Source of the DNA: a virus
Taxonomy: Duplodnaviria; Heunggongvirae; Uroviricota; Caudoviricetes
Reading direction: 5' to 3' (one strand)
Length of the DNA: 64,000 nucleotides
IMG/VR virus record: IMGVR_UViG_3300029610_000240
Part shown: positions 11,233 through 56,352 of the stretch, one piece after another
Numbering within the stretch: the stretch's first letter is position 1
Layout of the letters: each line of letters starts with the position of its first letter
The notes under the pieces: generated by a model
Databases searched by the model: none
What the model saw: the letters and a program-made list of their open reading frames with translations, nothing else
Told to the model about the DNA's origin: nothing
Position numbers and translations under genes: made by a program

Positions 11233-11324
11233 GGACTATTTGCCGAGTAGTTCACGAAAATAGAGCACCAGAGATATCCACAGTCAATTTGACTGTGGAT
11301 ATCTAACAAAGGAGAATAATTTTT

Positions 11325-12146: not shown

Positions 12147-12332
12147 GAAGGATGATTCCACAGTCTTTTGGCTGTGGGATTTTTGTATATCTTTAGAATT
12201 TTAGAATAATTTCATAAAATACGCATAAAATAAAAAATATGACACATATTGATAAAAAATATGATTTTTAGTATAATAAAGGAGTGTTATTTCGTGAATT
12301 ACGAATTTAAAATTTCAAGGGGGAAAGAGAAA

Positions 12333-13451: not shown

Positions 13452-13465
13452 AAGGGGATAAAACA

Positions 13466-13969
13466 ATGGCTACAAAATATTATTTATATTATGTTGAAGG
13501 AGAAGATGAAAAGAAGGTTGTTGATACATTAAAAAAAGATATGAAGTTAATCAGACCTGGAGTTTCGCAAGTATTTAATGTTGTAGAAAATGAATTGACA
13601 AATGCTAGACTTATGACAATTAAGGAAAATACAACCGTTGTGCTGATTTTTGATACAGATACAGGAAATACAGAAAAAGTCAGGAAAAATATCGAGCTTC
13701 TAAAAAAAGCTAGAAATGTGAAAGAGATTGTATGTATTACACAAGTAAAAAATTTGGAAGATGAATGGGTTCGAAGCTGCGATGTGAAGAAACCTCAAGA
13801 ATTAACTGGAAGTGATTCCTTAACTAATTATAAAAGAGCATTAAGAAAAATCACAAATCTTGATAAAAAATTAAAAGAACATCATTTTGATTTTCAAAAG
13901 TTTTGGAAAAAATCAGATCCTGTGTATGAAGATATAAAAAATGAATCAGATAAAATTCGATTAAAATAA
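13466..13969 (+). CDS. small DUF4435/TOPRIM-like partner of the ATPase
   Basis: YYVEGEDEKKVV..VVLIFDTDTG acidic pattern as in DUF4435/OLD-type TOPRIM, recalled from memory. Tightly coupled to the upstream ATPase. Confidence 0.4.
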   Translation: MATKYYLYYVEGEDEKKVVDTLKKDMKLIRPGVSQVFNVVENELTNARLMTIKENTTVVLIFDTDTGNTEKVRKNIELLKKARNVKEIVCITQVKNLEDEWVRSCDVKKPQELTGSDSLTNYKRALRKITNLDKKLKEHHFDFQKFWKKSDPVYEDIKNESDKIRLK

Positions 13970-13978: not shown

Positions 13979-15370
13979 TTGCTAATGTTGCGTACAATCG
14001 AAATGTGCACAAATGAATACAAAGATACAACACAAAAGGAAATCCGAAAGAAAAAAGGACAGTTTTTTACACCGGCAGAGGTTTCGATGAGAATGGCTGC
14101 TGTAGAAAATAAATATCCGAAGAATCAATTAATAAGGGTGTTAGATCCAGGAGCAGGAAACGGTATTTTATCTTTTGCCATGATTGATAAATTACTAAGA
14201 AGTGGGTATAAACGGCTTGATATTACACTGATTGAAACGGATACAGAGATTTTACCAGTCTTAGAATATACAATCACTAAAATTAGACAAATCTGTGAAT
14301 CATATCATGCAGAATGTACTATCCATTATATTGATCAAAATTTCGTGTTATGGGAATCCTCCTGTTTATATGATATCGTCATATGTAATCCTCCATATAT
14401 GAAAGTAAGAAAAGATTCTATCGAAGCAACGGCAATGAAGGCATATGTATATGGACAGCCTAACCTATATGGATTGTTTATGGCAAAAGCAGTAGAATTA
14501 TTGCGTGATAATGGACAGTACATTTTTATTACTCCCCGTTCGTGGACTTCTGGAAAATATTTTACGAAAGTACGGAGCTTCTTACAAAAAGAATTGAACA
14601 TAAAAGAAATCGACCTTTTTTCAAGTCGTGATGAAGTTTTTCAGGGAGAGAAAGTTCTTCAGGAGACAATGATCTTATATGGAGAAAAAGGACAGATTCA
14701 AAATGAGAAAATTAAAATTAATATTCTTAAAGACGGAACTTTAGATACAGGAAACAGTTTTTGGGCAGCAGCAGATCAGATTAAGTTTAAAGGATCAGAA
14801 CAATATCTGCTTTTACCAGAAAATGAAAATGATCTTAAAATTATAGATATAATGTCTGATATGACAGATTCTTTTGAGTCCAGTGGATATCACTTCAAAA
14901 CGGGACCAGTTGTAGAATTTCGAAATTTAGATCATATTCATAAAATATATCAAACTGGAGATATCCCAATGTATCGTTCGATACATATACAAAATGGAAC
15001 TCTGCAGTTTCCTGCCGATACTCAAAAAGCACAATATGTTAGTGCGGATGAAGAATCCTTGTTGATCCCAAAGCAAAATACTATTTTAGTTCGTCGGTTG
15101 AGTATGAAAGAAGATTTAAAACGTATTCAGGCTTGCAAATATTTTGCAGATGAAAATACAGACTTAAATACAGAATTTATGACTGTTGAAAATCATGTAA
15201 ATTATCTAACACGTAAAGATGGTATGGAAATGACCAGAAATGAAATAGATCAGCTGTTTGATATTTTAATGTCAGATATGTATGAACGTTATATCCGATT
15301 GATCAACGGAAGTACACAGATAAATGCGGGAGAACTTAATAAATTACCATTACAGAGGATTGAACGATGA
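13979..15370 (+). CDS. N6-adenine DNA methyltransferase (gamma class)
   Basis: GQFFTP, the AdoMet motif VLDPGAGNGIL and the catalytic NPPY (ICNPPYMKV). Confidence 0.85.
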   Translation: MLMLRTIEMCTNEYKDTTQKEIRKKKGQFFTPAEVSMRMAAVENKYPKNQLIRVLDPGAGNGILSFAMIDKLLRSGYKRLDITLIETDTEILPVLEYTITKIRQICESYHAECTIHYIDQNFVLWESSCLYDIVICNPPYMKVRKDSIEATAMKAYVYGQPNLYGLFMAKAVELLRDNGQYIFITPRSWTSGKYFTKVRSFLQKELNIKEIDLFSSRDEVFQGEKVLQETMILYGEKGQIQNEKIKINILKDGTLDTGNSFWAAADQIKFKGSEQYLLLPENENDLKIIDIMSDMTDSFESSGYHFKTGPVVEFRNLDHIHKIYQTGDIPMYRSIHIQNGTLQFPADTQKAQYVSADEESLLIPKQNTILVRRLSMKEDLKRIQACKYFADENTDLNTEFMTVENHVNYLTRKDGMEMTRNEIDQLFDILMSDMYERYIRLINGSTQINAGELNKLPLQRIER

Positions 15371-16359
15371 AAAGAAATGTAGAAAAATATGATTATCAGG
15401 TATTGAATGATGCAAAAAATATTCTTATGGAAATTGATATGCCAAAAGAACTTTATAATCCAAGGTGTGTTATGATATTTTGTGCATGTGCCCAGATGAT
15501 AGATGGAAAATCATGGAGGCATATATCAGAAGAATATATGAGTGTCCATGATATTATCAAATATGTAAATGATGTATTTCCTAATAAAGCAGGTTTGGAT
15601 AAAAAAGGATATCAGGAAAATAGCAGGGAAACATTTCGGGATGAAACTCTAAAACGTTGGGTAAGTGCAGCAATCATTGAATCTAAAGCAGGACTGGCAG
15701 CCAATGATAGAAACAATGGATATCGTTTTACTTCCGCTTTTGCCGCATTGGTAAGAACTTATGGAAGTGATCAGTGGGAAGATTCCCTGTCAGCATTTAT
15801 GGAAACTTATGAAAGCTATAGTAAAAAATTAAAACAAGTAAAATCCCTGCCGAAAGGATATGATGTGACTTGCGGAAATATTACAGTTAAATTAGGATTA
15901 TCCGCACATAATAAATTACAAAAACAGATTTTAGAAGAGTTTGTTCCCAATTTTGCATCTGGAGCAGAATTATTATATATAGGCGATACATCCGATCGTA
16001 CATTACAAAGAGATGACAAACGATTATCAGAATTAGGAATTAAAATCCTAGAAGATACTTCAAAACTTCCAGATATTATTTTATATGATTCTGATAAAAA
16101 TCGAATCATATATGTGGAAGCGTACTCCAGTACCGGAGAATTTAATAAGGATCGAGTCGATTATATTAATACATATTGCTCATATAAAAATGATATTGAA
16201 GTGGCATTTGTAACAGCATTTGCAACAACAAAAAAGATGCTTCAGGTTTATCCAAAGATTGCATGGGACACAGAGATCTGGATTGCCGAAGAAGCAACAC
16301 ATCTGACTCATAAAAACGGAGATAGATTTATGGGAAGGAATCCCGAAGAGTTTTTATAG
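15367..16359 (+). CDS. type II restriction endonuclease, BsuBI/PstI-like
   Basis: Overlaps the methyltransferase stop (ATGA). 330 aa with PD-(D/E)xK-like PDIILYDSDKNRIIYVEAYSS. Family assignment is from memory of PstI-type size and organisation. Confidence 0.55.
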   Translation: MKRNVEKYDYQVLNDAKNILMEIDMPKELYNPRCVMIFCACAQMIDGKSWRHISEEYMSVHDIIKYVNDVFPNKAGLDKKGYQENSRETFRDETLKRWVSAAIIESKAGLAANDRNNGYRFTSAFAALVRTYGSDQWEDSLSAFMETYESYSKKLKQVKSLPKGYDVTCGNITVKLGLSAHNKLQKQILEEFVPNFASGAELLYIGDTSDRTLQRDDKRLSELGIKILEDTSKLPDIILYDSDKNRIIYVEAYSSTGEFNKDRVDYINTYCSYKNDIEVAFVTAFATTKKMLQVYPKIAWDTEIWIAEEATHLTHKNGDRFMGRNPEEFL

Positions 16360-19460: not shown

Positions 19461-19772
19461 ATGAAACAGTATATCGGAATAAAGGTTGTTGCTGCGAGAC
19501 CAATGACAAGAGGTGACTATAATATCTTTCGAGGATGGCAGATTCCGGCAGACGAAGATCCTGCCGATGAAGGATATGTGATGAAATACGAGAATGGACA
19601 TGTGCAATGGTTGCCAAAGGATATGTTTGAGTCTGACTATAAAGAATATGACGAGAGTACCCTGCCGGCAACAGCTATTGGTATGGTAAGTTCAGATTAC
19701 AAAGAATGTTTTCAGGCAGAGTACAAGCAGCTCAGAATTCGTTATGAAAAATTGAAGAGAATGCGTCAATAA
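19461..19772 (+). CDS. hypothetical small protein
   Basis: ATG at 19461 behind GGAGAAAGGAG. Its stop codon directly abuts the IscB element's left hairpin. Confidence 0.5.
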   Translation: MKQYIGIKVVAARPMTRGDYNIFRGWQIPADEDPADEGYVMKYENGHVQWLPKDMFESDYKEYDESTLPATAIGMVSSDYKECFQAEYKQLRIRYEKLKRMRQ

Positions 19773-20044
19773 CCCCGACCTACAGTAATAACTGTTGAGG
19801 TCGGAGCTTGTAAAAGCTCATATTGACTAGCCTAAGTTCTTCGAGAACTACGTTGTTTATGTTATCACACCTGCGAATGATACCATAGTTTGCAGCCTTG
19901 TGTAGGCTCTGTAAAAGTTCTGTGAGGTAGGAACGGTCAACCTAGTATGTTCGATCACGACAAGCATTTACAACATTGGCGAAGGGTAACAAACTTTCAA
20001 AAGAAAGGGACAGCACTTGAGAGTAGCTGTCAAAGGTAAAAACT
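19773..20044 (+). ncRNA. IscB omega-RNA region
   Basis: About 270 nt of non-coding, visibly GC-richer and hairpin-rich sequence immediately 5' of iscB, which is the known position of IscB omega-RNAs. Confidence 0.65.
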
Positions 20045-21319
20045 ATGAGAGTATTTGTATTCAATATGCGTGGCAGACCATTAATGCCATGCTCACAAAG
20101 AAAAGCCAGATTACTCCTAAGGGAAAATAAGGCTATGATTTATAAATATCATCCATTTACGATTCAGCTGACTTATACAACTGGAGAAACAAAGCAGGAC
20201 TGTCATATAGGTATAGACACAGGTTCTAAATATATAGGAGCTGCTGTCAGATCAGAGGATAAGGTTTTTTGGAAAGGCGAAATCGAGCTTCGACAGGATA
20301 TCAGGTCAAATCTTGATACGAAACGTATTTATCGCAGAAGCAGACGAAATCGTAAAACAAGATACCGAAAACCAAGGTTTTTAAATCGTAAGAGAAGAGA
20401 TGAATGGCTTCCACCTAGCTTGCAAAGCAGGATAAATCATACGTTTCATTGGATTGACACATTGAGTAGTTTGGTTCCAAACCCCATTCTTCACATAGAA
20501 GTCGGTAAGTTTGATGTAGCAAAGATGATAAATCCTGAAATCCATGGAGTTGACTATCAACATGGTCAGACATATGGTTTCTTCGATGAAAGGTATTTTG
20601 TTTTTGCAAGAGATAACTACACTTGTCAGTGCTGTGGAAAGTCAAAAAATAAGATTTTGAACACACATCATATCATCTACCGCAGTAATGGCGGAACAAA
20701 CAGAGTTGATAATCTTATTACAGTTTGCACAGATTGTCATACATCGCAGAATCACAGGAAAGGTGGAATATTCTATCAATGGCAGGAGCAGCATAAAAAG
20801 GTAAAACAATACAAAGAACCGCCGTTCATGAATACCTTACGTAAGAGGATATTTGTAGCGTATCCAGATGCTGAGATCACATATGGATCTGAAACAACAC
20901 CAAAACGTAAGGCGATGAAATTGGATAAGACGCACTATAATGATGCGATTGTCATTAGTGGTATCAATGAAATTAAAGAAAATCCTGAAGAATGGTTACT
21001 GATAAAACAATTCCGCAAAAAGAAACGCTCTTTACACGAGGCTACCGCCCGTAAGGGAAGAAAAAAGCCAAACAGAAATCAGACGCGTAACAGTAAGAAT
21101 ACGCCTTATTATAAAGGATTTTATCTTAACGATAAGGTTTCAGTTTTTGGAAAGAGTGGATATATTACAGGATTTACGAGCAATGCGGCATATATAAAAG
21201 ATGAGAACAATGACTATATTACTCTGCCAAACAAAACCTATAAACAGGTCAGCATCAATAAAATGAAGTTGGAATGTCATAACAACAATTGGCAGTACAT
21301 AATAAAAAATGCTGTGTAA
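20045..21319 (+). CDS. iscB: IscB RNA-guided nuclease (PLMP, split RuvC, HNH)
   Basis: PLMP motif (RGRPLMPC), RuvC-I IGIDTGSKYIGAAV, Arg-rich bridge RRSRRNRKTRYRKPRF, RuvC-II LHIEVGKFD, HNH CQCCGK..THHIIYRSNGGTNRVDNLITVCTDCH, RuvC-III HYNDAIV. Confidence 0.9.
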   Translation: MRVFVFNMRGRPLMPCSQRKARLLLRENKAMIYKYHPFTIQLTYTTGETKQDCHIGIDTGSKYIGAAVRSEDKVFWKGEIELRQDIRSNLDTKRIYRRSRRNRKTRYRKPRFLNRKRRDEWLPPSLQSRINHTFHWIDTLSSLVPNPILHIEVGKFDVAKMINPEIHGVDYQHGQTYGFFDERYFVFARDNYTCQCCGKSKNKILNTHHIIYRSNGGTNRVDNLITVCTDCHTSQNHRKGGIFYQWQEQHKKVKQYKEPPFMNTLRKRIFVAYPDAEITYGSETTPKRKAMKLDKTHYNDAIVISGINEIKENPEEWLLIKQFRKKKRSLHEATARKGRKKPNRNQTRNSKNTPYYKGFYLNDKVSVFGKSGYITGFTSNAAYIKDENNDYITLPNKTYKQVSINKMKLECHNNNWQYIIKNAV

Positions 21320-23446: not shown

Positions 23447-23600
23447 CATCCTCTCCCATCTATAGAGGTGGGAGCTTCCCTAACCTCGGCAGGTTTGGTT
23501 CTCGTTCGATAGCACCAATGTGCTAAGCTTAAGCGAGCTAACCCCGTGTGTCCCACGGTTGTATTATGTGAAATTGTGGTTATGCAGTTACTATCCGCAT
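23447..23600 (-). ncRNA. TnpB omega-RNA region
   Basis: Sequence overlapping and extending past the 3' end of tnpB, GC-richer than its surroundings, ending at the element-end hairpin. Confidence 0.55.
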
Positions 23601-24698
23601 TCCCTCATTTCTGATATTGATCGCTGCATTTACATCTCTGTCGTGATGGATTCCACACTGCGGACAATCCCACTGCCTGAGTGCAAGATCCTTTGTTTTC
23701 GCATTCTTGTAACCACAGGCAGAACACATCTGACTGCTTGCAAAAAATCTGTCCACTTTCACAAGTTTTTTCCCTTGTTCCTCAAGTTTATACTTTAGAA
23801 AGGCTGTGAACATTCCCCATCCATTATCCGAAACGGATTTTCCCAATTTCAACGACCGAGACATTGCTTTCATATCCAGATCCTCTATACATACACAATC
23901 ATAGGCATTGGTTATCTGTCTTGACTGCTTATGCAGAAAATCTTTTCGCTGATTGGAAACTTTTTCGTGAAGTTTGGCTACCTTGATTCTCTGTTTCCTG
24001 CGATTGTTCGAACCTTTCTGCATCTTGGAAAGTCTGCGTTGTTCTCTTGCTAATCTTTTCTCTGCGTTCCGGTAATATCCTGGATATGCCGGTTCATTGC
24101 CATTACTGTCACGATATAATCCGTGCATGGAAAAGTCCAGACCTAAAAAACTGTGCATCTCCTTTTCTGGTATCTGATCTTCATACTCAAAAAGGATACT
24201 TGCATAGTATCTTCCGCCTGGTGTCTGGCTGATCGTCACTGATTTCAACCTGTATCCCTTTGGAACAGATCTGTGCTGCTTTAATCGGACTTGTCCGATC
24301 TTTGGCAGTTTCAGATACCCATCCGATATGGTGATGTTGCCATTGATACATATGGTTGAATAGCTGTTTTTATGATTCTTTTTTGATTTGAACCTTGGAA
24401 ATCCTGTTTTCGGCCGTTTGAAAAAGTTCTGAAATGCTGTATCAAGGTGTCGGAGTGATTGCTGTAAGGATATACTATCGACTTCCCGCAAAAATGCGTA
24501 TTCTTCCGTTTTCTTCATTTCAGCCATTTCTTTCGCACAGACAGTATATGTTATATTTGTCTTGTTCTTCTTATACTGCCTGATCCTTCGATTAAGCCAA
24601 TGGTTGTACACCATTCTGACACAGCCGAAAGTCCTGGCAAACAGAATCATCTGCTCATTATTGGGATATATTCTGAATTTATATGCTCTGTTTGCCAT
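23580..24698 (-). CDS. tnpB: TnpB RNA-guided nuclease (IS605 OrfB type)
   Basis: N-terminal AYKFRIYPN..Q, RuvC D (GLDFSMHG), E (CIEDLDMK), Zn finger CSACGY..CPQCG, RuvC-III HDRDVNAAINI. Confidence 0.9.
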   Translation of the reverse strand: MANRAYKFRIYPNNEQMILFARTFGCVRMVYNHWLNRRIRQYKKNKTNITYTVCAKEMAEMKKTEEYAFLREVDSISLQQSLRHLDTAFQNFFKRPKTGFPRFKSKKNHKNSYSTICINGNITISDGYLKLPKIGQVRLKQHRSVPKGYRLKSVTISQTPGGRYYASILFEYEDQIPEKEMHSFLGLDFSMHGLYRDSNGNEPAYPGYYRNAEKRLAREQRRLSKMQKGSNNRRKQRIKVAKLHEKVSNQRKDFLHKQSRQITNAYDCVCIEDLDMKAMSRSLKLGKSVSDNGWGMFTAFLKYKLEEQGKKLVKVDRFFASSQMCSACGYKNAKTKDLALRQWDCPQCGIHHDRDVNAAINIRNEGMRIVTA

Positions 24699-25992: not shown

Positions 25993-26667
25993 ATGAAAGA
26001 GGTTTTGAAGAAAATGAAAATAAAATGTAGTAAAAAATTAAAGAAAACGCATTTGAGTGATGGTGCTTATAATTTGCTAATCGAAGCTATTGTACTATAC
26101 GGCTTATTAATCAATCTTATAACATGTGCATTTTTTGCGGATTATGTAGCTATGATTCCATTAAGAGCATTGGTGATTGGATACCTGCTCATTTCAATTA
26201 TTGGAATAGTAATGTTAACCAGATATAAGGCTGTCCTTGTAAAATTTGTTGGATATAACATGATTGTGATTCCATGTGGAATAACATTATCAACCATCAT
26301 CAGTGATTATGCTGGTAGATCTGATCTTGTATTGCAAGCATTGATCATTACAACTATGATCACTTTTTGTATGATTACTCTTAGTTGCATATTCCCAAAG
26401 TTTTTTGTAGGTATTGGGAAAATGCTTTTTGTAGCATTAGTAGGAGTTGTTATTGCATATGTCGTATGCTATTTTGTCGGATTAAATACAGGAATTATAG
26501 CATGGATTTCGGCAATTATTTTTTCCTTATATATTGGATACGATTTTGTTTCAGCACAGCAGGCTAAACATACAGTTGCAAACGCAATTATTTACGGGGC
26601 TGATATTTATTTGGATCTGGTCAATCTTTTTGTTGAGATTTTAAGAATTTTAAAAGATAACGATTAA
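25993..26667 (+). CDS. Bax-inhibitor-1/YccA-like membrane protein
   Basis: Seven hydrophobic helices and the C-terminal GADIYLDLVNLFVEILRIL pattern typical of BI-1 family proteins. Confidence 0.6.
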   Translation: MKEVLKKMKIKCSKKLKKTHLSDGAYNLLIEAIVLYGLLINLITCAFFADYVAMIPLRALVIGYLLISIIGIVMLTRYKAVLVKFVGYNMIVIPCGITLSTIISDYAGRSDLVLQALIITTMITFCMITLSCIFPKFFVGIGKMLFVALVGVVIAYVVCYFVGLNTGIIAWISAIIFSLYIGYDFVSAQQAKHTVANAIIYGADIYLDLVNLFVEILRILKDND

Positions 26668-32224: not shown

Positions 32225-32710
32225 ATGAAGCATATGATTATAAACACATTGATCATTATATTTTGGTTACTTGTAATTATTTACATACTTATAGAAAGTT
32301 ATATCTACGGCCCATTAACAGTACTATGTGGATGTGTTTTGGCAAGCATAATAGTAATTGCCGGCATAAAAATAGTAACGGGAATAGCCCCTAAAGGATG
32401 GATTAAAACATATACAACCGTAGCGACTGTATCAAAAAAATATACAAAAGATGATAAATATGGATAAGGTACCACAATAAGAGGGAAATATGAAATAACA
32501 GGTGTTCTACTATGTAGAAAATATTATATTGTTTTAAATGAGAATGGGAAAGATCATACATTTGAGATTCCTAAAAGCCAATACAATTCAATAAAGCTGA
32601 ACAGTCGTGTATTGTGTAAGATAAATTATAAAGAAAATAAAATTACAAAAATTAAAATGATCGATAAATCAAGAATTTTATATAATCCTTTCGTTCAAAA
32701 ACTTAGATAA
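32225..32710 (+). pseudogene. membrane protein gene with an in-frame TAA at 32465 (paralogue of 32905..33267)
   Basis: The frame continues 81 codons past the TAA with no restart codon. The combined product mirrors the paralogue: TM helices, DDKY, then a small beta-rich domain (KLNSRVLCKINY versus KIGDKVLCNVY). Confidence 0.45.
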
Positions 32711-32730
32711 CGTAACTATAAAGAGATTCA

Positions 32731-32802
32731 TGATGATGACTTAATTGATGATTTAAGACAAAGTTTTAAAAATATGTAACAGATATATGTAAAAACAAAT
32801 GG
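32731..32802 (+). CRISPR. guide module A: one spacer-like segment plus one repeat
   Basis: Repeat GTTTTAAAAATATGTAACAGATATATGTAAAAACAAATGG (32763..32802), preceded by TGATGATGACTTAATTGATGATTTAAGACAAA. Confidence 0.6.
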
Positions 32803-32804
32803 CA

Positions 32805-32872
32805 GTTACATAATGCGTAAGAATAAGAATGTATCGAATAAGTCTATATAAGTAGAATCTACCAGGTGGTAG
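32805..32872 (+). ncRNA. tracrRNA-like scaffold A
   Basis: Anti-repeat GTTACATAATGCGTAAGAAT pairs with ATATGTAAC of the repeat. Nexus AAGAATGTATCGAAT. Hairpins TCTA/TAGA and CTACC-AGG-TGGTAG (32859..32872). Confidence 0.65.
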
Positions 32873-32904
32873 AAAATATTAAAACTAACAGGAGATAATA
32901 TTTC

Positions 32905-33267
32905 ATGGACACAGAAGATTTAATTGAAAAAAAGGTAAATATCATGATTTTACTATGTATCATGATGATAATGTTGGCTATGCTTCCCCGTATGGTTAAC
33001 CAGGTAATAAAAATTTGTAACTATAAACAAACAGCTTCTCTAAATGTGGATGATAAATATTACCAAAATTCTCGCTGGGGAAACAGCTATAAAATTGTTA
33101 TTAATTGTCATGATGAAGAAAAAGAAATTGCAGTTTCAGAAAAAGAATTTCACGCAATTAAAATCGGAGATAAAGTATTGTGTAATGTATATCGTTCAGC
33201 AAATCAAGTTGTAACTGTAGAATTAAATGAACATTGGAAAGACGCAGGTGACAAGTATGATAACTAA
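32905..33267 (+). CDS. small membrane-anchored protein
   Basis: RBS AGGAGA and one TM helix. Paralogue of 32225..32710. Confidence 0.55.
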   Translation: MDTEDLIEKKVNIMILLCIMMIMLAMLPRMVNQVIKICNYKQTASLNVDDKYYQNSRWGNSYKIVINCHDEEKEIAVSEKEFHAIKIGDKVLCNVYRSANQVVTVELNEHWKDAGDKYDN

Positions 33268-36133: not shown

Positions 36134-36277
36134 GTTTTGTAATCGTGTAAAAGCACTTAAATATGCTGTAGAAGATGTTTTGTTACTGTGCAACGGAAAT
36201 ATGTCTAAATGATTTAATTTATTACTACTTTTTATTCCTTTGTTTTGTAACCGTGTAACGGAGACATGTCTAAATGG
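36134..36277 (+). CRISPR. guide module B mini-array (3 repeats)
   Basis: Repeats at 36134..36165 (decayed), 36177..36212 and 36242..36277 (GTTTTGTAACCGTGTAACGGAGACATGTCTAAATGG). Spacers are 11 nt and 29 nt (TTTAATTTATTACTACTTTTTATTCCTTT). Confidence 0.7.
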
Positions 36278-36356
36278 TCAAATTATTTTGCACGGTGCGT
36301 AAAAATAAGAAATTATCGAATAGGCTCGTTAAAACGAGAGCTGCCGTGTGGCAGTA
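36278..36356 (+). ncRNA. tracrRNA-like scaffold B
   Basis: TCAAATTATT linker. Anti-repeat TTGCACGGTGCGTAAAAAT pairs with ACCGTGTAA. Nexus AAGAAATTATCGAAT. Hairpins CTCGT-TAAA-ACGAG and CTGCC-GTGT-GGCAG. Confidence 0.75.
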
Positions 36357-36499
36357 AATCTAAGCTACATCAATTTCAAGATTATAATTTGGGAGGAGAA
36401 AATGTTTGGGAAAATTAATGTTTTTTATTTATTGTTGGCTATATATTTGTATTATTTGTTATATTCTTGCAGCCAAGAACAAGAAAGAAGGTGTAGTGT

Positions 36500-37183
36500 A
36501 TGATTAATTTTTCAGTAGTTCATAATTCTTTATTCATTTTGCTTAGTATCATCTTTATATTATCTACAATAAATCCGCTCAAACATCGCTACGAACCAAT
36601 CATAGATATTGAGCCGCAGATCATAAAAATTAAAGATGGAAAATATGTAAAAATTGATTATATCATATACTCTCAGATTATAGATTCAAAATTGTATCGT
36701 AAGAAAAAGAATGAAAATATAATGAAATTAATGAGGATGAAATCATTATATATATTAGAACGTATTATTCGAAATATGCCATACAAAACAATTGTTGATC
36801 AAAGAGAATATATCGAAAATAATCTACAGACACAATTAAATGATAGTTTAAGAAAATATGGAATTGGAGTAGAACGTGTTGCTTTAAAAAATATTTTGGA
36901 AGATTCAGTTCTTGTATCTTGTGTAGATAAAAGCTCGAATGAAACTCATAAATGTACTTCCGAAGAAGTAGGAGATATTCCAAGTTATGTTGATGATCAT
37001 GTACGGACAGATTATATATCTATTTTTCAATATAATGATCAGATAATCAAATCAAGAAATAAAGATATTTATGATCAAGTAGAAGTTGGGAAAAAATACA
37101 ATGCTAGAATTAAGATTCTAATACATAATGATCAAACAGAAAATTATGATGTGGCAGAAATTATATCCGGAATTAAAAAATGA
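36500..37183 (+). CDS. membrane protein with weak SPFH/band-7-like segment
   Basis: N-terminal TM helix. LNDSLRKYGIGVERVALKNI resembles the SPFH core. Confidence 0.4.
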   Translation: MINFSVVHNSLFILLSIIFILSTINPLKHRYEPIIDIEPQIIKIKDGKYVKIDYIIYSQIIDSKLYRKKKNENIMKLMRMKSLYILERIIRNMPYKTIVDQREYIENNLQTQLNDSLRKYGIGVERVALKNILEDSVLVSCVDKSSNETHKCTSEEVGDIPSYVDDHVRTDYISIFQYNDQIIKSRNKDIYDQVEVGKKYNARIKILIHNDQTENYDVAEIISGIKK

Positions 37184-46126: not shown

Positions 46127-49100
46127 GTGCAGAATGGATTTTTAGGAATAACTGTTAGTAGTGAACAGGTTGGTTGGGCAGTTACAAATCCCAAATATGA
46201 GTTAGAACGTGCATCTCGAAAAGATTTATGGGGTGTAAGGCTTTTTGATAAAGCAGAAACAGCGGAAGATCGAAGAATGTTCCGTACAAACAGACGATTA
46301 AATCAGAGAAAAAAGAACAGAATACATTATCTTAGAGATATTTTCCATGAGGAAGTAAATCAAAAAGATCCTAACTTTTTTCAGCAATTAGATGAAAGCA
46401 ATTTCTGTGAAGATGATCGTACTGTAGAGTTTAATTTTGATACTAATCTTTATAAGAATCAGTTTCCAACAGTGTATCATTTAAGAAAATATCTAATGGA
46501 AACAAAAGATAAACCAGATATTCGTCTGGTATACTTAGCTTTTTCAAAATTTATGAAAAATCGAGGACATTTCTTATACAAAGGAAATCTTGGAGAGGTT
46601 ATGGACTTTGAAAATTCCATGAAAGGCTTTTGTGAAAGTTTAGAGAAATTTAATATTGACTTCCCTACATTATCAGATGAACAGGTAAAAGAAGTCCGAG
46701 ATATCTTATGTGATCATAAAATTGCTAAAACTGTGAAAAAGAAAAACATCATTACTATTACAAAAGTAAAAAGTAAGACAGCAAAAGCATGGATTGGACT
46801 GTTTTGTGGTTGCAGCGTTCCTGTTAAAGTATTATTTCAGGATATCGATGAAGAAATTGTAACGGATCCAGAAAAAATCTCATTTGAAGATGCTTCTTAT
46901 GATGATTGTATTGCAAATATTGAAAAGGGTGTCGGTATTTATTATGAAGCTATTGTTTCTGCAAAGATGCTTTTTGACTGGTCTATCCTGAATGAAATTT
47001 TAGGTGACCATCAGTTATTAAGTGATGCAATGATCGCAGAATACAATAAGCATCATGATGATTTAAAGCGTTTACAGAAGATCATTAAAGGAACTGGCAG
47101 TAGAGAATTATATCAGGATATCTTTATTAATGATGTTTCTGGAAATTATGTATGCTACGTTGGTCATGCAAAAACAATGAGTAGTGCAGATCAGAAACAG
47201 TTTTATACATTTTTAAAAAATCGATTAAAAAATGTGAATGGTATTTCATCAGAAGATGCAGAATGGATTGATACAGAGATTAAAAACGGTACTTTACTAC
47301 CAAAACAGACAAAACGTGATAACAGTGTTATTCCGCATCAATTACAGTTAAGGGAATTTGAATTAATTCTTGATAACATGCAGGAAATGTATCCATTCTT
47401 AAAAGAAAACAGAGAAAAATTATTAAAAATCTTCAATTTCGTTATTCCTTATTATGTAGGTCCGCTAAAGGGCGTTGTAAGAAAAGGAGAGAGTACAAAC
47501 TGGATGGTGCCTAAAAAAGATGGTGTGATTCATCCATGGAATTTCGATGAAATGGTAGACAAAGAAGCGTCTGCGGAATGTTTTATTTCCCGAATGACAG
47601 GAAATTGTAGTTATTTATTTAATGAAAAAGTTCTTCCAAAGAATTCTCTTCTTTATGAGACATTTGAGGTATTAAATGAGCTAAATCCATTAAAGATCAA
47701 TGGAGAACCTATCAGCGTGGAATTAAAACAGAGAATTTATGAACAGCTTTTCTTGACAGGGAAAAAAGTTACAAAAAAATCTCTGACAAAATATCTTATC
47801 AAGAATGGCTATGACAAAGATATTGAATTATCAGGTATTGATAATGAATTTCACAGCAATCTAAAATCTCATATTGATTTTGAGGATTACGATAATCTAT
47901 CTGATGAAGAAGTTGAACAGATTATTCTTAGAATTACAGTATTTGAAGATAAGCAGCTGTTAAAAGATTATTTAAATCGCGAGTTTGTAAAGCTCTCTGA
48001 GGATGAGAGAAAACAGATTTGCTCATTATCTTATAAAGGATGGGGAAACTTATCAGAAATGCTATTAAACGGTATTACTGTAACAGATTCCAATGGTGTA
48101 GAAGTTTCTGTAATGGATATGCTGTGGAATACAAACTTAAATCTGATGCAGATCTTAAGTAAGAAATATGGATATAAAGCAGAAATCGAACATTACAATA
48201 AAGAACATGAAAAAACCATTTATAATCGTGAAGATTTGATGGATTATTTAAATATTCCACCGGCTCAGCGTAGGAAGGTAAATCAGCTGATTACGATAGT
48301 AAAATCTCTCAAAAAGACATATGGAGTTCCAAATAAGATTTTCTTCAAAATAAGCAGAGAACATCAGGATGATCCAAAGAGAACTTCATCCAGAAAAGAA
48401 CAGCTAAAATATTTATACAAATCCTTAAAATCAGAAGATGAAAAACATCTTATGAAAGAGCTTGATGAATTGAACGATCATGAATTATCCAATGATAAAG
48501 TTTATCTTTATTTTCTACAGAAAGGACGCTGCATTTATTCTGGCAAGAAATTAAATCTTTCAAGATTAAGAAAATCTAATTATCAGAATGATATTGACTA
48601 CATTTATCCATTATCTGCAGTAAATGATCGTTCTATGAATAATAAGGTATTAACGGGAATCCAGGAGAATCGAGCAGACAAGTATACCTATTTTCCAGTT
48701 GATTCAGAAATTCAGAAAAAAATGAAGGGATTTTGGATGGAACTGGTTCTGCAGGGATTTATGACAAAGGAGAAATACTTCCGATTATCCAGAGAAAATG
48801 ATTTTTCAAAGAGCGAACTTGTTAGCTTTATTGAACGTGAAATTTCAGATAATCAGCAAAGTGGAAGAATGATTGCTTCTGTATTACAGTATTATTTCCC
48901 TGAATCAAAGATTGTATTTGTAAAAGAAAAGCTGATTTCTTCCTTTAAGAGGGATTTCCATTTAATTAGTAGTTATGGTCACAATCATTTACAAGCTGCA
49001 AAAGATGCTTATATTACGATTGTAGTTGGAAATGTATATCATACAAAATTTACAATGGACCCAGCAATCTATTTTAAGAATCATAAGAGAAAAGATTATG

Positions 49101-50065
49101 ATCTGAACCGATTATTCTTAGAAAATATCAGCAGAGATGGACAGATTGCATGGGAAAGTGGTCCATATGGGTCAATTCAGACGGTTCGAAAAGAATATGC
49201 TCAAAACCATATTGCTGTTACAAAAAGAGTCGTGGAAGTAAAAGGCGGCTTATTTAAGCAGATGCCATTAAAAAAAGGACATGGCGAATATCCATTAAAA
49301 ACCAATGATCCTAGATTTGGCAATATCGCACAGTATGGAGGGTATACGAATGTCACAGGTTCCTATTTTGTATTAGTAGAATCAATGGAGAAAGGGAAAA
49401 AACGTATTTCTTTAGAATATGTTCCAGTATATCTTCATGAGCGTTTAGAGGATGATCCTGGACATAAACTGTTAAAAGAATATCTGGTTGATCACAGAAA
49501 ACTTAATCATCCAAAGATTTTACTTGCAAAAGTAAGAAAAAACTCATTACTTAAGATTGACGGTTTTTATTATCGTTTAAATGGTCGAAGTGGAAATGCT
49601 CTTATCCTTACAAATGCAGTGGAATTGATCATGGATGACTGGCAGACAAAAACAGCAAACAAGATTTCTGGATACATGAAACGCAGAGCTATTGATAAGA
49701 AAGCAAGGGTTTATCAAAATGAATTCCATATTCAGGAATTAGAACAGCTTTATGATTTTTATTTAGATAAATTAGAGAATGGTGTTTATAAAAATCGTAA
49801 GAATAATCAGGCTGAATTAATTCACAACGAAAAAGAACAGTTTATGGAACTCAAGACAGAAGATCAGTGTGTATTATTGACTGAGATTAAAAAGCTTTTT
49901 GTATGTTCTCCAATGCAGGCAGACCTTACATTGATTGGTGGCAGCAAACACACAGGAATGATTGCTATGTCAAGCAATGTTACAAAAGCAGATTTTGCAG
50001 TCATTGCGGAAGATCCTTTAGGACTTAGAAACAAAGTAATTTATTCTCATAAAGGTGAGAAGTAA
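46127..50065 (+). CDS. cas9: Cas9 homologue (type II-A-like size) with substituted RuvC and HNH catalytic residues
   Basis: GTG start 7 nt after AAGGAGGA. Conserved: bridge helix RRMFRTNRRLNQRKKNRIHYLRDIF, FPTVYHLRKYL, NRGHFLYKG, IPHQLQL, IPYYVGPL, PWNFDEMVDKEASAECFISRMT, YKGWGNLS. Catalytic columns: LGITVSSEQVGWAV (D10 is T), IFFKISREHQ (E762 is K), DIDYIYPLS (H840 is Y), QAAKDAYITIVVG (H983 is A, D986 kept). Confidence 0.9.
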   Translation: MQNGFLGITVSSEQVGWAVTNPKYELERASRKDLWGVRLFDKAETAEDRRMFRTNRRLNQRKKNRIHYLRDIFHEEVNQKDPNFFQQLDESNFCEDDRTVEFNFDTNLYKNQFPTVYHLRKYLMETKDKPDIRLVYLAFSKFMKNRGHFLYKGNLGEVMDFENSMKGFCESLEKFNIDFPTLSDEQVKEVRDILCDHKIAKTVKKKNIITITKVKSKTAKAWIGLFCGCSVPVKVLFQDIDEEIVTDPEKISFEDASYDDCIANIEKGVGIYYEAIVSAKMLFDWSILNEILGDHQLLSDAMIAEYNKHHDDLKRLQKIIKGTGSRELYQDIFINDVSGNYVCYVGHAKTMSSADQKQFYTFLKNRLKNVNGISSEDAEWIDTEIKNGTLLPKQTKRDNSVIPHQLQLREFELILDNMQEMYPFLKENREKLLKIFNFVIPYYVGPLKGVVRKGESTNWMVPKKDGVIHPWNFDEMVDKEASAECFISRMTGNCSYLFNEKVLPKNSLLYETFEVLNELNPLKINGEPISVELKQRIYEQLFLTGKKVTKKSLTKYLIKNGYDKDIELSGIDNEFHSNLKSHIDFEDYDNLSDEEVEQIILRITVFEDKQLLKDYLNREFVKLSEDERKQICSLSYKGWGNLSEMLLNGITVTDSNGVEVSVMDMLWNTNLNLMQILSKKYGYKAEIEHYNKEHEKTIYNREDLMDYLNIPPAQRRKVNQLITIVKSLKKTYGVPNKIFFKISREHQDDPKRTSSRKEQLKYLYKSLKSEDEKHLMKELDELNDHELSNDKVYLYFLQKGRCIYSGKKLNLSRLRKSNYQNDIDYIYPLSAVNDRSMNNKVLTGIQENRADKYTYFPVDSEIQKKMKGFWMELVLQGFMTKEKYFRLSRENDFSKSELVSFIEREISDNQQSGRMIASVLQYYFPESKIVFVKEKLISSFKRDFHLISSYGHNHLQAAKDAYITIVVGNVYHTKFTMDPAIYFKNHKRKDYDLNRLFLENISRDGQIAWESGPYGSIQTVRKEYAQNHIAVTKRVVEVKGGLFKQMPLKKGHGEYPLKTNDPRFGNIAQYGGYTNVTGSYFVLVESMEKGKKRISLEYVPVYLHERLEDDPGHKLLKEYLVDHRKLNHPKILLAKVRKNSLLKIDGFYYRLNGRSGNALILTNAVELIMDDWQTKTANKISGYMKRRAIDKKARVYQNEFHIQELEQLYDFYLDKLENGVYKNRKNNQAELIHNEKEQFMELKTEDQCVLLTEIKKLFVCSPMQADLTLIGGSKHTGMIAMSSNVTKADFAVIAEDPLGLRNKVIYSHKGEK

Positions 50066-50106: not shown

Positions 50107-50259
50107 GCTTTGGAACTGCGTAGAACATGATATGTCTTATGGCTAAAAGAATTACAGGTGCATATTTTGAACTGTGTAAAACATGGCATATGGGAGAATT
50201 GGCAACGACTGGAACAGAACACAGTTTTGAAACTGTATAAAACATGACATGTCTTATGG
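50107..50259 (+). CRISPR. guide module C mini-array (3 repeats), starting 42 nt after the cas9 stop
   Basis: Repeats at 50107..50142 (6 mismatches), 50164..50193 (30 nt, decayed) and 50224..50259 (GTTTTGAAACTGTATAAAACATGACATGTCTTATGG). Spacers: 21 nt CTAAAAGAATTACAGGTGCAT and 30 nt GAGAATTGGCAACGACTGGAACAGAACACA. Confidence 0.75.
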
Positions 50260-50336
50260 TTCAAATTATTTATACAGTACGTGAAAATAAGAAATTATCG
50301 AATAAACTCGTTTAGACGAGAACTGCTAGAGGCAGT
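50260..50336 (+). ncRNA. tracrRNA-like scaffold C
   Basis: Anti-repeat TTTATACAGTACGTGAAAAT gives a 10-bp perfect pairing with ACTGTATAAA. Nexus AAGAAATTATCGAAT. Hairpins CTCGT-TTAG-ACGAG and CTGC-TAGAG-GCAG (50323..50335). Confidence 0.8.
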
Positions 50337-50352
50337 AATTGCAGAAAATGTC

Positions 50353-50961: not shown

Positions 50962-51117
50962 ATTTTGAGAAATGATTGCAAATGTGATCGTAGCGTACCT
51001 TACTTCACAGCTTAGTTTTGGAACTATGTAAAATCAAATGATTGCAAATGGGCAGAGAGAAAATTTGAAAAATTGTCTGTGTTTTGGAACTATGTAAAAT
51101 CAAATGATTGCAAATGG
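50962..51117 (+). CRISPR. guide module D mini-array (3 repeats)
   Basis: Repeats at 50962..50985 (internally deleted), 51015..51051 and 51081..51117 (GTTTTGGAACTATGTAAAATCAAATGATTGCAAATGG). Spacers: GATCGTAGCGTACCTTACTTCACAGCTTA and GCAGAGAGAAAATTTGAAAAATTGTCTGT. Confidence 0.8.
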
Positions 51118-51193
51118 TCAAAGTAATTGCATGGCGTGTAAAAATAAGAATTTATCGAAATAATTTGCTCCGGCGAAATCTGCAAGATGCAGA
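51118..51193 (+). ncRNA. tracrRNA-like scaffold D
   Basis: TCAAAGTAA linker. Anti-repeat TTGCATGGCGTGTAAAAAT pairs with CTATGTAA through two G:U. Nexus AAGAATTTATCGAAAT. Hairpins TTTGC-TCCG-GCGAA and TCTGC-AAGA-TGCAGA. Confidence 0.75.
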
Positions 51194-51197
51194 AATC

Positions 51198-51290: not shown

Positions 51291-51445
51291 ATAAAATTGA
51301 ATGATTCCAATGGATAGTCGAAAAAGAATTGGATAGTCGACGGGTTTTAGAATAGTGTAAAATTGAATGATTCTAAGGGTTAGATACTCCACTAGATAGC
51401 AAAGTACTTGTTTTAGAATAGTGTAAAATTAAATGATTCTAAGGG
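51291..51445 (+). CRISPR. guide module E mini-array (3 repeats)
   Basis: Repeats at 51292..51313 (3' half only), 51344..51379 (GTTTTAGAATAGTGTAAAATTGAATGATTCTAAGGG) and 51410..51445. Spacers: ATAGTCGAAAAAGAATTGGATAGTCGACGG and TTAGATACTCCACTAGATAGCAAAGTACTT. Confidence 0.8.
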
Positions 51446-51528
51446 GTCAAATAGATTCTATACAATGCGTGAAAATAAGAAACTTATCGAACAAACCTGT
51501 GTAGGAAACAGGAACTGCCGAGGGCAGT
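51446..51528 (+). ncRNA. tracrRNA-like scaffold E
   Basis: GTCAAATAGAT linker, anti-repeat TCTATACAATGCGTGAAAAT, nexus AAGAAACTTATCGAAC. Hairpins CCTGT-GTAGGAA-ACAGG and CTGCC-GAG-GGCAG (51515..51527). Confidence 0.75.
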
Positions 51529-51823
51529 AAAAATAAAAAGCATATTTTTATTATGTTTTATTTTATGATGAAGAGGTGGATGATGGTTCTATCTCTGTTT
51601 TTGAGAAAATGGATGCATTGCAAAATGCAACAATCTTAGAAGTACAAATACATATTGATGACTTAAAAGATAAATTGGAAGAAGTAAAATTTACTCTTAA
51701 AATATCAGGTTTGTATTTGAAGAAGATAATTTTATGGATTCTTATTATAAATCTTATACGTTACCGATTGTATATCACAAAAACTATTTATTAAGTATTA
51801 ACAATGATAAGGAATAACAATAA

Positions 51824-53791: not shown

Positions 53792-53965
53792 GATTTGAAT
53801 CCATGTAAAAATGTAAAGCAAATGATTCCAAATGGCAATCTTCTCGAATTGTCGTGTAGGCAAAGTTTTGAAACCATGTAAAAAAATGATTCCAAATGGG
53901 TATGCATTGGTGTTTGAAGCGTTTGTGTGTTTTGGAACCATGTAAAAGCAAATGATTCCAAATGG
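53792..53965 (+). CRISPR. guide module F mini-array (3 repeats)
   Basis: Repeats at 53792..53835 (internal duplication), 53865..53899 (2-nt deletion) and 53929..53965 (GTTTTGGAACCATGTAAAAGCAAATGATTCCAAATGG). Spacers: CAATCTTCTCGAATTGTCGTGTAGGCAAA and GTATGCATTGGTGTTTGAAGCGTTTGTGT. Confidence 0.8.
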
Positions 53966-54043
53966 TTAAAAGCAGATTACATGGTGTGTCAAAATAAGAA
54001 CTTATCGAATAGATCTATATAAATGGAATCTGCCAGGTGGCAG
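53966..54043 (+). ncRNA. tracrRNA-like scaffold F
   Basis: Anti-repeat TTACATGGTGTGTCAAAAT gives a 9-bp perfect pairing with ACCATGTAA. Nexus AAGAACTTATCGAAT. Hairpin 2 CTGCC-AGGT-GGCAG (54030..54043). Hairpin 1 is weak and resembles that of scaffold A. Confidence 0.75.
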
Positions 54044-54053
54044 AAAAAAACTG

Positions 54054-55411: not shown

Positions 55412-55543
55412 ATATCATCAAAGAGGTTTTGGTTAACTAAAGGTTGATTATCGGTATATCATTGTTCGGTGTCTGTAGACAGCATTTTTTCAAATCTATA
55501 GTTGTTATAAAATAAGAGACACTTTCATGTATAGTGGAGTTTA

Positions 55544-55570
55544 GTTTCAGAAGTTTATAAAAACAGATAA
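55544..55570 (+). CRISPR. guide module G: single divergent repeat
   Basis: GTTTCAGAAGTTTATAAAAACAGATAA, preceded by the candidate guide GAGACACTTTCATGTATAGTGGAGTTTA. Confidence 0.5.
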
Positions 55571-55580
55571 CTATTAATGA

Positions 55581-55658
55581 TTATCTGTTTCATGGATTGT
55601 GTAAAAATAAGCAAATTAGCGAATATGCTCGTTGAAACGAGAGCTGTTAGATAACAGC
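55581..55658 (+). ncRNA. tracrRNA-like scaffold G
   Basis: TTATCTGTTT pairs perfectly with AAACAGATAA across a 10-nt loop. GATTGTGTAAAAAT, nexus variant AAGCAAATTAGCGAAT. Hairpins CTCGT-TGAA-ACGAG and GCTGTTA-GA-TAACAGC. Confidence 0.6.
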
Positions 55659-55710
55659 TAAAAATGTAACTATATAAATTAATTTGTAAATTATAGGGAG
55701 GACTATTTTA

Positions 55711-56094: not shown

Positions 56095-56249
56095 ACAGAA
56101 GAATCATTGTCGATGTTAAACATATTATGTGAAACATTATTGTCAGGCTTTAGAAGTCTATAAAACAGAATCATTGTCAATGAGATCAAATTCTTTATGA
56201 CAACGCAATACAGCTTTAGAAGTCTATAAAACAGAATCATTGTCAATGG
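56095..56249 (+). CRISPR. guide module H mini-array (3 repeats)
   Basis: Repeats at 56095..56115 (3' half only), 56147..56183 and 56213..56249 (GCTTTAGAAGTCTATAAAACAGAATCATTGTCAATGG). Spacers: TTAAACATATTATGTGAAACATTATTGTCAG and GATCAAATTCTTTATGACAACGCAATACA. Confidence 0.8.
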
Positions 56250-56325
56250 TCAAATAAGCAGACTGCGTAAAAATAAGAATTTTATCGATATTGCTCGTGT
56301 AGTCGAGAACTGCCAAGTGGCAGCA
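56250..56325 (+). ncRNA. tracrRNA-like scaffold H
   Basis: TCAAATAAG linker, anti-repeat CAGACTGCGTAAAAAT, nexus AAGAATTTTATCGAT. Hairpins CTCG-TGTAGT-CGAG and CTGCC-AAGT-GGCAG (56310..56323). The next gene's RBS follows 18 nt later. Confidence 0.75.
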
Positions 56326-56352
56326 ACATTTATAATAAAAAGGAGGAATTAT

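Follow-up and report, generated by a model that had tools for sequence, protein, structure and literature searches.

Nuclease-dead Cas9 (dCas9) programmed with engineered single-guide RNAs (sgRNAs) is a standard tool for gene silencing. In nature, tracr-L of S. pyogenes (bioRxiv 10.1101/2020.05.21.102756) and the phage vsgRNAs (bioRxiv 10.64898/2026.06.01.729453) carry guides of 11 to 14 nucleotides (nt) directed against the host cas9 promoter; both act on nuclease-active host Cas9, and vsgRNA loci are without cas9. CampyICE1, an integrative and conjugative element (ICE) of Campylobacter (PMC8743540), has a lone cas9, no cas1 or cas2, and three dispersed short arrays in which repeat changes are mirrored in the trans-activating CRISPR RNA (tracrRNA) and whose spacers are aimed at competing mobile elements and plasmids. 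It is of type II-C, its Cas9 keeps every RuvC and HNH motif, and a single tracrRNA is encoded separately, on the opposite strand (PMC8743540). A phage type II-C Cas9 has an inactivated RuvC, an active HNH, a tracrRNA nearby and no CRISPR array, and is proposed to hijack host CRISPR RNAs (crRNAs) as an anti-CRISPR (Altae-Tran et al. 2023, PMC10910872). The type IV-A and V-M (Cas12m) systems of plasmids are nuclease-free, usually lack adaptation genes and silence competitors by DNA binding (PMC11656645). Here we analyze Module A, a small locus in a 64,000-nt stretch of DNA assigned to a Caudoviricetes virus (IMG/VR record IMGVR_UViG_3300029610_000240; hereafter the window). We consider it somewhat better than an even bet, at roughly 55%, that Module A is the gene for a natural sgRNA whose guide serves DNA binding and silencing by a dCas9 of a mobile element.

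The evidence starts with the scaffold. In a whole-window Rfam search the 3' part of Module A scored 71.4 bits (E=1.4e-11) against RF03055, RAGATH-30, for which the curated gathering score is 59.5 bits. All 59 model positions are matched (E=8.6e-14 when the local stretch alone is searched), so that the scaffold proposed at this site by an earlier, sequence-only reading of the window clears the threshold of a covariance model over its full length. Eight RAGATH-30 copies are present in the window, all on the + strand between 32.7 and 56.3 kb, with scores from 64.7 to 78.6, among which Module A is mid-range. When all Rfam families were compared with positions 32600-33000 at E<=1, RAGATH-30 was the sole match, and the Rfam tracrRNA family was not matched. 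Likeness of the Module A tail to the tail of the SpCas9 guide is limited to GU.A.AAUAAG...CG. Rfam lists RAGATH-30 only as 'Gene; sRNA', without function. It is a candidate structured RNA of Weinberg et al. 2017 (NAR 45:10811), and the term RAGATH is absent from the main text of that paper; our search of the literature, the searchable part of which is incomplete, found no paper that mentions RAGATH-30 or ties it to tracrRNA.

The eight copies were aligned together with 150 nt upstream of each, and every module was then read. An anti-repeat-like TTTACAnAGTGCGTAAAA lies directly 5' of every RAGATH-30 copy, preceded by one to three copies of a 36- to 37-nt CRISPR-type repeat (GTTTTAGAACTATGTAAAAT..AATGATTCTAAATGG) with spacers of 29-31 nt, and in each module the last repeat leads, on the same strand, straight into the anti-repeat. 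Folded as single sequences, most modules, Module A included, take an sgRNA-like shape in which an upper stem and a large loop are accompanied by two terminal hairpins. Covariation was scored for a structure derived by analogy with the SpCas9 guide, on an alignment of 22 distinct module variants from the window and metagenome loci. In the repeat:anti-repeat structure 92.9% of cells are paired and 11 pairs are changed on both sides; within the upper stem, changes on both sides affect 6 of 10 pairs. The covariation score is 0.44 versus 0.22 in shuffles, the observed values were attained in none of 500 shuffles, and sliding the 3' partner by 1-3 columns left 36-53% of cells paired. Because repeat:anti-repeat pairing covaries across modules, RAGATH-30 is a tracrRNA tail, comprising the nexus and hairpins, that is joined to the final repeat of a mini-array. 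The modules are mini-CRISPR arrays, each ending in a natural fusion of crRNA and tracrRNA; modules B to G have two or more direct repeats with a spacer between them, and Module A has one repeat.

All parts of Module A, from the guide through repeat strand, loop and anti-repeat to the tail, lie in cis on a single strand. The 5' half of its CRISPR-type repeat, GTTTTAAAAATATGTAAC, begins at 32763 and is complementary to GTTACATAAT..GTAAGAAT at 32805-32824, so that an anti-repeat complementary to a repeat of the same locus, a tracrRNA feature, is present. Folding gives an upper stem of 8 bp and a lower stem of 5 bp, in which AAGAAU pairs with GUUUU with one U:G pair included, and the linker is homologous to the repeat 3' half and tracr start of other modules. 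The upper stem UAUGUAAC:GUUACAUA departs from the consensus ACUAUGUAAA:UUUACAUAGU in a way peculiar to Module A, with a matched change in repeat and anti-repeat (GTAAC/GTTAC versus GTAAA/TTTAC). The tail forms hairpin 1 (UCUAU/GUAGA) and hairpin 2 (UCUACC/GGUAGA), and the cmscan alignment marks no pair as non-standard. Hairpin 2 had been described as mutated on both strands, and it is indeed: UCUACC-AGGU-GGUAGA replaces the family's CUGCC/GGCAG by a pairing-preserving G:C to A:U change. Since the upper-stem and hairpin 2 changes are compensatory, the fold has been kept since Module A diverged from the other modules. Repeat A pairs with its own anti-repeat at -9.3 kcal/mol and with the other seven at -6.3 or weaker; in the reverse direction, anti-repeat A with the repeats of other modules reaches -8.4, versus -9.3 kcal/mol with its own, and the own pair of Module A is the best in the 8x8 comparison.

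These results, with the conserved synteny of modules A and B described below, bear out the proposal that Module A is a single-guide unit of a cas9 system (covariation, and own-pair preference of -9.3 versus -6.3 kcal/mol). The 32-nt guide agrees letter for letter with that first transcription. The placement 13 kb upstream of cas9 was correct as well, the Cas9 open reading frame (ORF) starting 13.3 kb downstream on the same element, an association with cas9 of the kind expected for a tracrRNA. So was the view that the system extends beyond the cas9 neighborhood, given eight co-oriented modules over 32.7-56.3 kb; modules adjoin the Cas9 gene both in the window and in relatives at 71-74% identity. 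Two details were mistaken. A repeat called unusually long at 40 nt is not so, as 54 nt separate the start of the repeat from the nexus in Module A, versus 54-59 nt in the other seven; its 3' boundary is undefined because no second repeat copy is present, and 40 nt is a boundary artifact. A decayed second repeat suspected near 32693 has no better standing, because local alignment of repeat A, repeat B and the consensus with the 122 nt upstream did no better than shuffles, and the stretch encodes ..VQKLR*, the C terminus of the upstream reading frame. The core interpretation is nevertheless right, and the context looks like a natural dCas9 system.

The protein on which that context depends has the domain plan of type II-A Cas9s (REC, bridge helix, HNH insertion, PAM-interacting [PI] domain) and is closest to them. 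Pfam assigns REC, PI, BH (bridge helix) and HNH domains to the ORF, and its best matches in the Protein Data Bank (PDB) are the Cas9 of 9jwk and SpCas9. Its catalytic motifs, in SpCas9 numbering, are altered: RuvC-I reads GITVSS for canonical GLDxGT (D10 to T), RuvC-II reads FKISR (FKxSR in the clade) for EMAR (E762 to K), HNH reads DIDYIYPLS for DIDHIYPQS (H840 to Y), and RuvC-III reads LQAAKDAY for LHHAKDAY (H983 lost, A). Residues T/K/A/D thus stand at D10/E762/H983/D986, and D/Y/N at D839/H840/N863. In SpCas9, a single substitution of D10 or H840 abolishes the respective activity.

A database search placed the window protein in a tight clade with relatives at 89% and 71-74% identity, followed by ordinary Cas9s at 40-43%, which keep all four catalytic motifs. 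The RuvC substitutions are common to all full-length clade members, the change of DIDH to DIDY is found in four of five full-length clade representatives, and the window protein's own cluster numbers 2780 sequences, drawn from human-gut assemblies. A further 16 clusters, at 96-99% identity to the window Cas9, consist of proteins of 1151-1159 amino acids (aa) in which the HNH Pfam domain is absent. On one such contig, L143, the gene (10001-13471) is 99.8% identical save for an in-frame 468-nt deletion, equivalent to window positions 48351-48818, that removes RuvC-II and the HNH domain, and six RAGATH-30 modules above the cut-off are found around it. Slightly different deletion ends among the 16 clusters suggest that the HNH region has been lost repeatedly. 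The Cas9 gene is not a pseudogene, because dN/dS (the ratio of nonsynonymous to synonymous substitution rates) between clade members is 0.06-0.09, dS being saturated; the parts that bind RNA, recognize DNA and read the PAM are retained under purifying selection. Because both nuclease domains have substituted catalytic residues across the clade, and near-identical variants have lost HNH, the guides most likely program binding, not cleavage.

Many human-gut metagenome contigs encode the exact Cas9 protein among conserved neighbors, in the order ATLF-like metalloprotease genes, Cas9, modules, UvrD helicase, glucosaminidase, DUF6906, and Tn916-type Xis and integrase. In the window the integrase gene (57770-59011) is followed by housekeeping-type genes, and the element is a Tn916-like integrative mobile element of a human-gut bacterium. 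Module A belongs to the same element as Cas9, because modules A and B keep their 3.4-kb spacing and synteny in four other metagenome contigs. Two relatives at 73-74% identity (P0019 and P0020) retain ATLF, Cas9, a tracr-fused array, glucosaminidase and Xis; UvrD is absent beside them, and we rejected it as an obligatory partner. Adaptation genes appear to be missing from the element: Cas1, Cas2 and Csn2 gave no Pfam match among window ORFs of at least 150 aa, shorter ORFs being mostly outside that scan, and cas1, cas2 and csn2 are absent from the gene lists of contigs L001-L006, L132-L135 and L143, which cover about 36.1-60 kb of the window, the interval within which those lists alone exclude a Cas2-sized gene. 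A relative at 40% identity lies in a standard cas9-cas1-cas2-csn2 locus, where the repeat is different and RAGATH-30 is absent. Megablast of window positions 28-52 kb against phage and plasmid collections gave no match, nor did scans of genome contigs with the Cas9 protein and with the RAGATH-30 DNA pattern.

A search with the scaffold DNA pattern recovered 10 IMG/VR and 109 metagenome stretches, nearly all from human-gut assemblies, and 274 module copies were parsed. In types B, C, E and G, elements differ from one another in entire spacers; the 38 copies of type C, for example, comprise 20 distinct arrays. Modules A, D and H, and one type outside the window, each have a single guide that varies by point mutations only; the Module A guide has two alleles in five copies and is the same in contigs L069, L022 and L107 save for one single-nucleotide change, A to G at 32743. 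In B, C, E and G arrays (window and L017-L125; L132, 5590-6080) the variable spacers lie on the tracr side (3'), and degenerate repeats with conserved spacers lie at the 5' end, so array polarity looks inverted in these modules. Because the variable spacers are tracr-proximal, the tracr-side flank (TCAAAT..) may serve as a leader for spacer integration. Modules G (51410-51530) and H (55544-55660) have weak repeat:anti-repeat pairing of their own (-4.8 and -3.0 kcal/mol), and Module H has a C:A at the top of its lower stem; these two may rely on the tracr of another module or be degenerating.

Direct evidence on targets, limited in amount, comes from two spacers of sibling elements, both of which match the IMG/VR contig L136 (IMGVR_UViG_3300029684_000242; 3699-3771 and 7115-7144). 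Spacer TGAGTGGAAAGCGAAAAGCTTGTAGTAGTT matches at 30 of 30 positions, and spacer CTGAAATATG[A/G]CTGCTGTTTTTTTATATGT at about 30 of 31, differing in T-run length. The latter occurs on different elements in type-B arrays (L007, L107 and L108) and a type-G array (L050), which suggests either independent acquisition against one target or recombination between modules. The two protospacers are 12 nt apart, the second of them recurs 3.4 kb away, and GAAAAT directly follows each protospacer, so that the protospacer-adjacent motif (PAM) is probably GAAAAT. Both sites coincide with the end of a gene and a terminator hairpin, where a repeated intergenic unit of 225 nt begins. These matches indicate that guides of this system address other mobile DNA. 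Units of terminator plus intergenic sequence are repeated in contig L136, which also has an IscB-like gene (39% identity to the window IscB); the idea that the protospacer marks the left end of an IscB element was unsupported, as no HEARO match was found in L136.

Our results lead us to propose the following working of Module A. Its RNA would be made from a weak promoter of its own or by operon read-through, would fold into the repeat:anti-repeat duplex and would load the dead Cas9, which would then be led to DNA that can pair with the 3' ~20 nt of the guide and lies beside a PAM, probably GAAAAT. The complex would bind without cutting and block the target's transcription, or possibly its replication or transfer. 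By analogy with nuclease-free type IV-A and V-M systems, the target would most likely be a gene of a competing mobile element. More tentatively, at odds that we would put short of even, the whole can be seen as a natural CRISPR-interference system: a nuclease-dead, II-A-derived Cas9 on a Tn916-like element would be programmed by eight dispersed RAGATH-30 modules, of which the variable ones would record competing mobile elements in spacers that host adaptation machinery would insert in trans at the end nearest the tracr, and the fixed single-guide ones, such as Module A, would be hard-wired for a conserved target.

Several points weigh against Module A as an sgRNA gene serving a dCas9. That the window Cas9 is very probably unable to cut DNA is judged from its residues, one clade member (P0020) retains the HNH histidine, and the HNH region is likewise under purifying selection in full-length genes, a caution that the domain, where present, still has a structural role. 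No protospacer of guide A was found in phage and plasmid collections, IMG/VR, the window or 1.2 Mb of related loci; the search of mobile-element collections (phages, plasmids, IMG/VR) advised by the sequence-only reading thus gave no target. The GAAAAT PAM is based on two distinct protospacers, neither from a window spacer. Transcription of the Module A RNA is predicted from the DNA letters: the candidate promoter would place the start near 32729-32731, at the 5' edge of the guide, and that promoter is not listed by a consensus scan because its -10 hexamer ends in A. A-rich sequence and no U-tract terminator follows hairpin 2, which is why read-through is kept as an alternative. Lastly, one contig, L030, is without Module A owing to a 355-bp deletion between 13-nt direct repeats, exactly as recombination predicts, and the copy in L107 has two indels, from which it follows that Module A is dispensable in some lineages.

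A fixed guide with a regulatory role comparable to that of tracr-L or the Francisella scaRNA is the strongest of the alternatives and still unlikely. A short seed match would bring the dead Cas9 to an element or host promoter, a role that would suit a dead Cas9, that has precedent in known natural sgRNAs that repress promoters, and that would agree with the point mutations in the single guides of A, D and H where B, C, E and G swap spacers. Seed searches within the window argue otherwise. No window guide has a seed of at least 8 nt beside a GAAA-type PAM (best for guide A, 5 nt), and no 10-nt 3'-seed match exists outside the modules save an AT-rich 13-nt match for Module B. Self-targeting and autoregulation within the window were rejected on these searches, which gave no match to the cas9 promoter; the short promoter-matching guide beside a PAM that marks tracr-L and the vsgRNAs was likewise not found for guide A in the window.

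The remaining target searches, run for the other spacers as well, were largely negative. The 12 window spacers, concatenated, had no match among phages and plasmids (blastn, E<=1), and a convincing target was found for none of the 12; guide H matched only its module's own copies in IMG/VR, and 148 spacers from all loci gave array-internal matches only in 1.2 Mb of related loci. Four distinct IMG/VR matches to the 3' 19-mer of guide A were judged to be chance (coding motif IDDLRQ), the 13 nt upstream being unmatched with no GAAAAT after. A codon-degenerate guide A pattern reached only 22-24 of 32 identities in IMG/VR. A 20-mer match of guide G1 in contig L139 had no PAM-like flank and was mismatched upstream; that contig, found through this chance match, has an ORF of more than 3884 codons (1029-12680) that runs off its end. 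The Module B spacer (36212-36241) has a 13-nt 3'-end match at the end of a GDPD gene (12099-12118, - strand) and a 22/24 match at the start of a Bax1-I-family gene (26019-26042, - strand), both probably chance, being AT-rich with no GAAA flank at either site.

Next in standing, and doubtful in our view, is an anti-CRISPR decoy, in which dead Cas9 and copies of the tracrRNA or sgRNA would soak up host crRNAs, or the RNAs would soak up active host Cas9, shielding the element from host type II-A immunity and leaving the guide A sequence irrelevant or secondary. Precedents exist in the RuvC-dead phage type II-C Cas9, which has a tracrRNA and was suggested to tie up host crRNAs (PMC10910872), and in phage-encoded compact sgRNAs that sequester host Cas9 (bioRxiv 10.64898/2026.06.01.729453), and both the many scaffold copies in the window and the missing target of guide A fit. 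A decoy accounts poorly, however, for modules with repeats of their own and 29- to 31-nt spacers that turn over between sibling elements, for two sibling spacers that match another mobile element with a shared PAM-like flank, and for anti-repeats that each covary with the neighboring repeat of the same module, not with a host repeat common to all; in the sole canonical relative examined, the repeat is different and RAGATH-30 is absent.

Third comes the possibility, which we think improbable, that Module A is a decaying remnant, a duplicate that has lost its function and drifts. Its single repeat, a lower-stem G for a conserved A (the U:G pair), its absence in L030, the indels in L107, the pseudogene upstream and the lack of a found target all speak for decay. 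A drifting module would hardly score 71.4 bits, in the middle of the eight copies, or differ in upper stem and hairpin 2 in ways that are compensatory and not disruptive, and the Module A duplex is stronger than those of G, H and F. An ordinary cleaving system, in which Cas9 would cut via other residues and Module A would be a normal immune guide, is very unlikely, since the purifying selection on the HNH fold, the retained D839, N854 and N863 equivalents and the one clade member with the histidine are set against replacement of the D10, E762 and H983 equivalents throughout the clade, a Tyr at H840 in the window protein and HNH-deleted variants that persist with intact modules.

Coordinates of Module A, the other modules and cas9 are collected in Table 1. 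The 5' limit of guide A is arbitrary because an upstream repeat is absent, and its functional part is probably the 3' ~20 nt.

Table 1. Module A, its sister modules and the Cas9 gene in the window
Feature	Coordinates	Strand	Basis
Candidate sigma-70-type promoter: TTCAAA (32694-32699), 17 nt, TATAAA (32717-32722)	32694..32722	+	By eye, predicted
Module A guide (spacer-equivalent), TGATGATGACTTAATTGATGATTTAAGACAAA	32731..32762	+	Sequence
Module A repeat 5' half: lower-stem strand GUUUU, bulge, upper-stem strand UAUGUAAC	32763..32781	+	
Module A linker/loop (~23 nt), joins repeat to anti-repeat in cis	32782..32804	+	
Module A anti-repeat GTTACATAATGCGTAAGAAT; GUUACAUA pairs with UAUGUAAC	32805..32824	+	Folding, covariation, pairing energies
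Module A RAGATH-30 match: lower-stem end, nexus-like AAUAAGAAUGUAUCGA, hairpin 1 (32843-32856), hairpin 2 (32858-32873)	32817..32875	+	
Module B: degenerate repeat, repeat, spacer 36212-36241, repeat fused to tracr (RAGATH-30 36299-36357)	36134..36357	+	
Cas9 homologue, 1312 aa, type II-A-derived; REC, bridge-helix and PAM-interacting domains intact	46127..50065	+	Pfam, PDB search, motif alignment
Module D, directly 3' of cas9: two decayed repeats, spacer 50194-50223, tracr-fused repeat	50107..50338	+	
Module E: spacers 50986-51014 and 51052-51080, two repeats, last tracr-fused	50986..51195	+	
Module G: spacers 51314-51343 and 51380-51409, last repeat tracr-fused	51314..51530	+	
Module C: three repeats, spacers 53836-53864 and 53900-53928, last repeat tracr-fused	53792..54046	+	
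Module H: single-guide unit as in A; guide invariant in 24/24 recovered copies	55511..55660	+	
Module F: spacers 56116-56146 and 56183-56212, last repeat tracr-fused	56116..56326	+	

Several features of the immediate flanks deserve mention. The sequence-only reading had placed Module A between two paralogous membrane-protein genes; a weak similarity does stand (22% identity over 46 aa, E=3e-5 in a single comparison), and the upstream gene is not intact. That gene, for a small membrane protein (161 codons, 32225-32710), is split by an in-frame TAA at 32465-32467, which is GAA in L030; the pseudogene state is common to L069 and L107. A 13-nt direct repeat, GTAGAAAATATTA, at 32514-32526 and 32869-32881, brackets the C-terminal part of this gene together with Module A. 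A sequence like a ribosome-binding site (RBS) lies a few to tens of bases 3' of modules A, B, H and F (32876-32905, 36358-36500, 55661-55710 and 56327-56340), followed by an ATG in A and F, and the sequence after hairpin 2 is A-rich, not a U-tract, in all four; these modules may be excised from operon transcripts.

The window holds other systems besides this one. A HEARO match (IscB omega RNA, 112.4 bits) followed by a gene for a 424-aa IscB with RRXRR and HNH domains (19765-21319) is a second, unrelated RNA-guided system. Upstream of it lies a restriction-modification pair (13979-16359) of an Eco57I/N6-type methyltransferase and a BsuBI/PstI-family endonuclease, and an IS605-family TnpB gene (372 aa, with OrfB_IS605 and Cas12f1-like TNB domains) is found at 23580-24698 on the - strand.

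If the sgRNA reading of Module A is true, evolution reached the design of a dCas9 with a fused single guide by itself, the theme of nuclease-free CRISPR on mobile elements (type IV-A, type V-M and CRISPR-associated transposons [CASTs]) would extend to type II, and the orphan Rfam motif RAGATH-30 would gain a function. Because the Cas9 cluster has 2780 members, the system is common and could shape competition among gut mobile elements. The natural HNH-less variants (about 1150 aa) and natural sgRNA scaffolds may have a practical use as compact DNA-binding modules. In the literature that we could search, which is incomplete and so gives absence of evidence only, we found no Cas9 clade with both nuclease centers disabled and fused guide modules of its own, and a search for natural dCas9 gave no match.

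As to RAGATH-30 itself, the 3' 59 nt of Module A are a full-length member above the cut-off, here shown as the tail of a tracrRNA fused to CRISPR repeats with a Cas9 homologue nearby. In architecture the closest relatives are tracr-L and the vsgRNAs, which, like Module A, combine guide, repeat-like strand, loop, anti-repeat and tracr tail in one RNA and use it for binding and not cutting, as we infer for Module A; the vsgRNAs likewise sit on mobile elements. Unlike them, the window system has guides of ~30 nt and eight modules, several of which are true mini-arrays with spacer turnover, and its element encodes its own Cas9, catalytically dead by its residues.

CampyICE1 shares with the window the integrative element, the lone cas9 without cas1 and cas2, the dispersed short arrays and the mirrored changes in repeat and tracr. 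It differs in that the window system is II-A-derived, has lost the catalytic residues and has its own fused tracrRNA for each array. As to CampyICE1-like targeting of competing mobile elements, two sibling-element spacers match L136 with a shared GAAAAT flank, and 0 of 12 window spacers had a convincing target. The phage type II-C Cas9 also combines a mobile element, a dead RuvC, a nearby tracrRNA, no adaptation genes and a helicase near by (SNF2 there, UvrD here), a likeness limited by the absence of UvrD from more distant clade members; the window Cas9 in contrast has its HNH disabled or deleted too and comes with its own arrays and guides. The closest functional analogues are the type IV-A and V-M systems, in a comparison that extends only to how the systems work: their effectors are unrelated (Cascade-like with DinG, or Cas12m), and they have neither a tracrRNA nor an sgRNA-like fusion.

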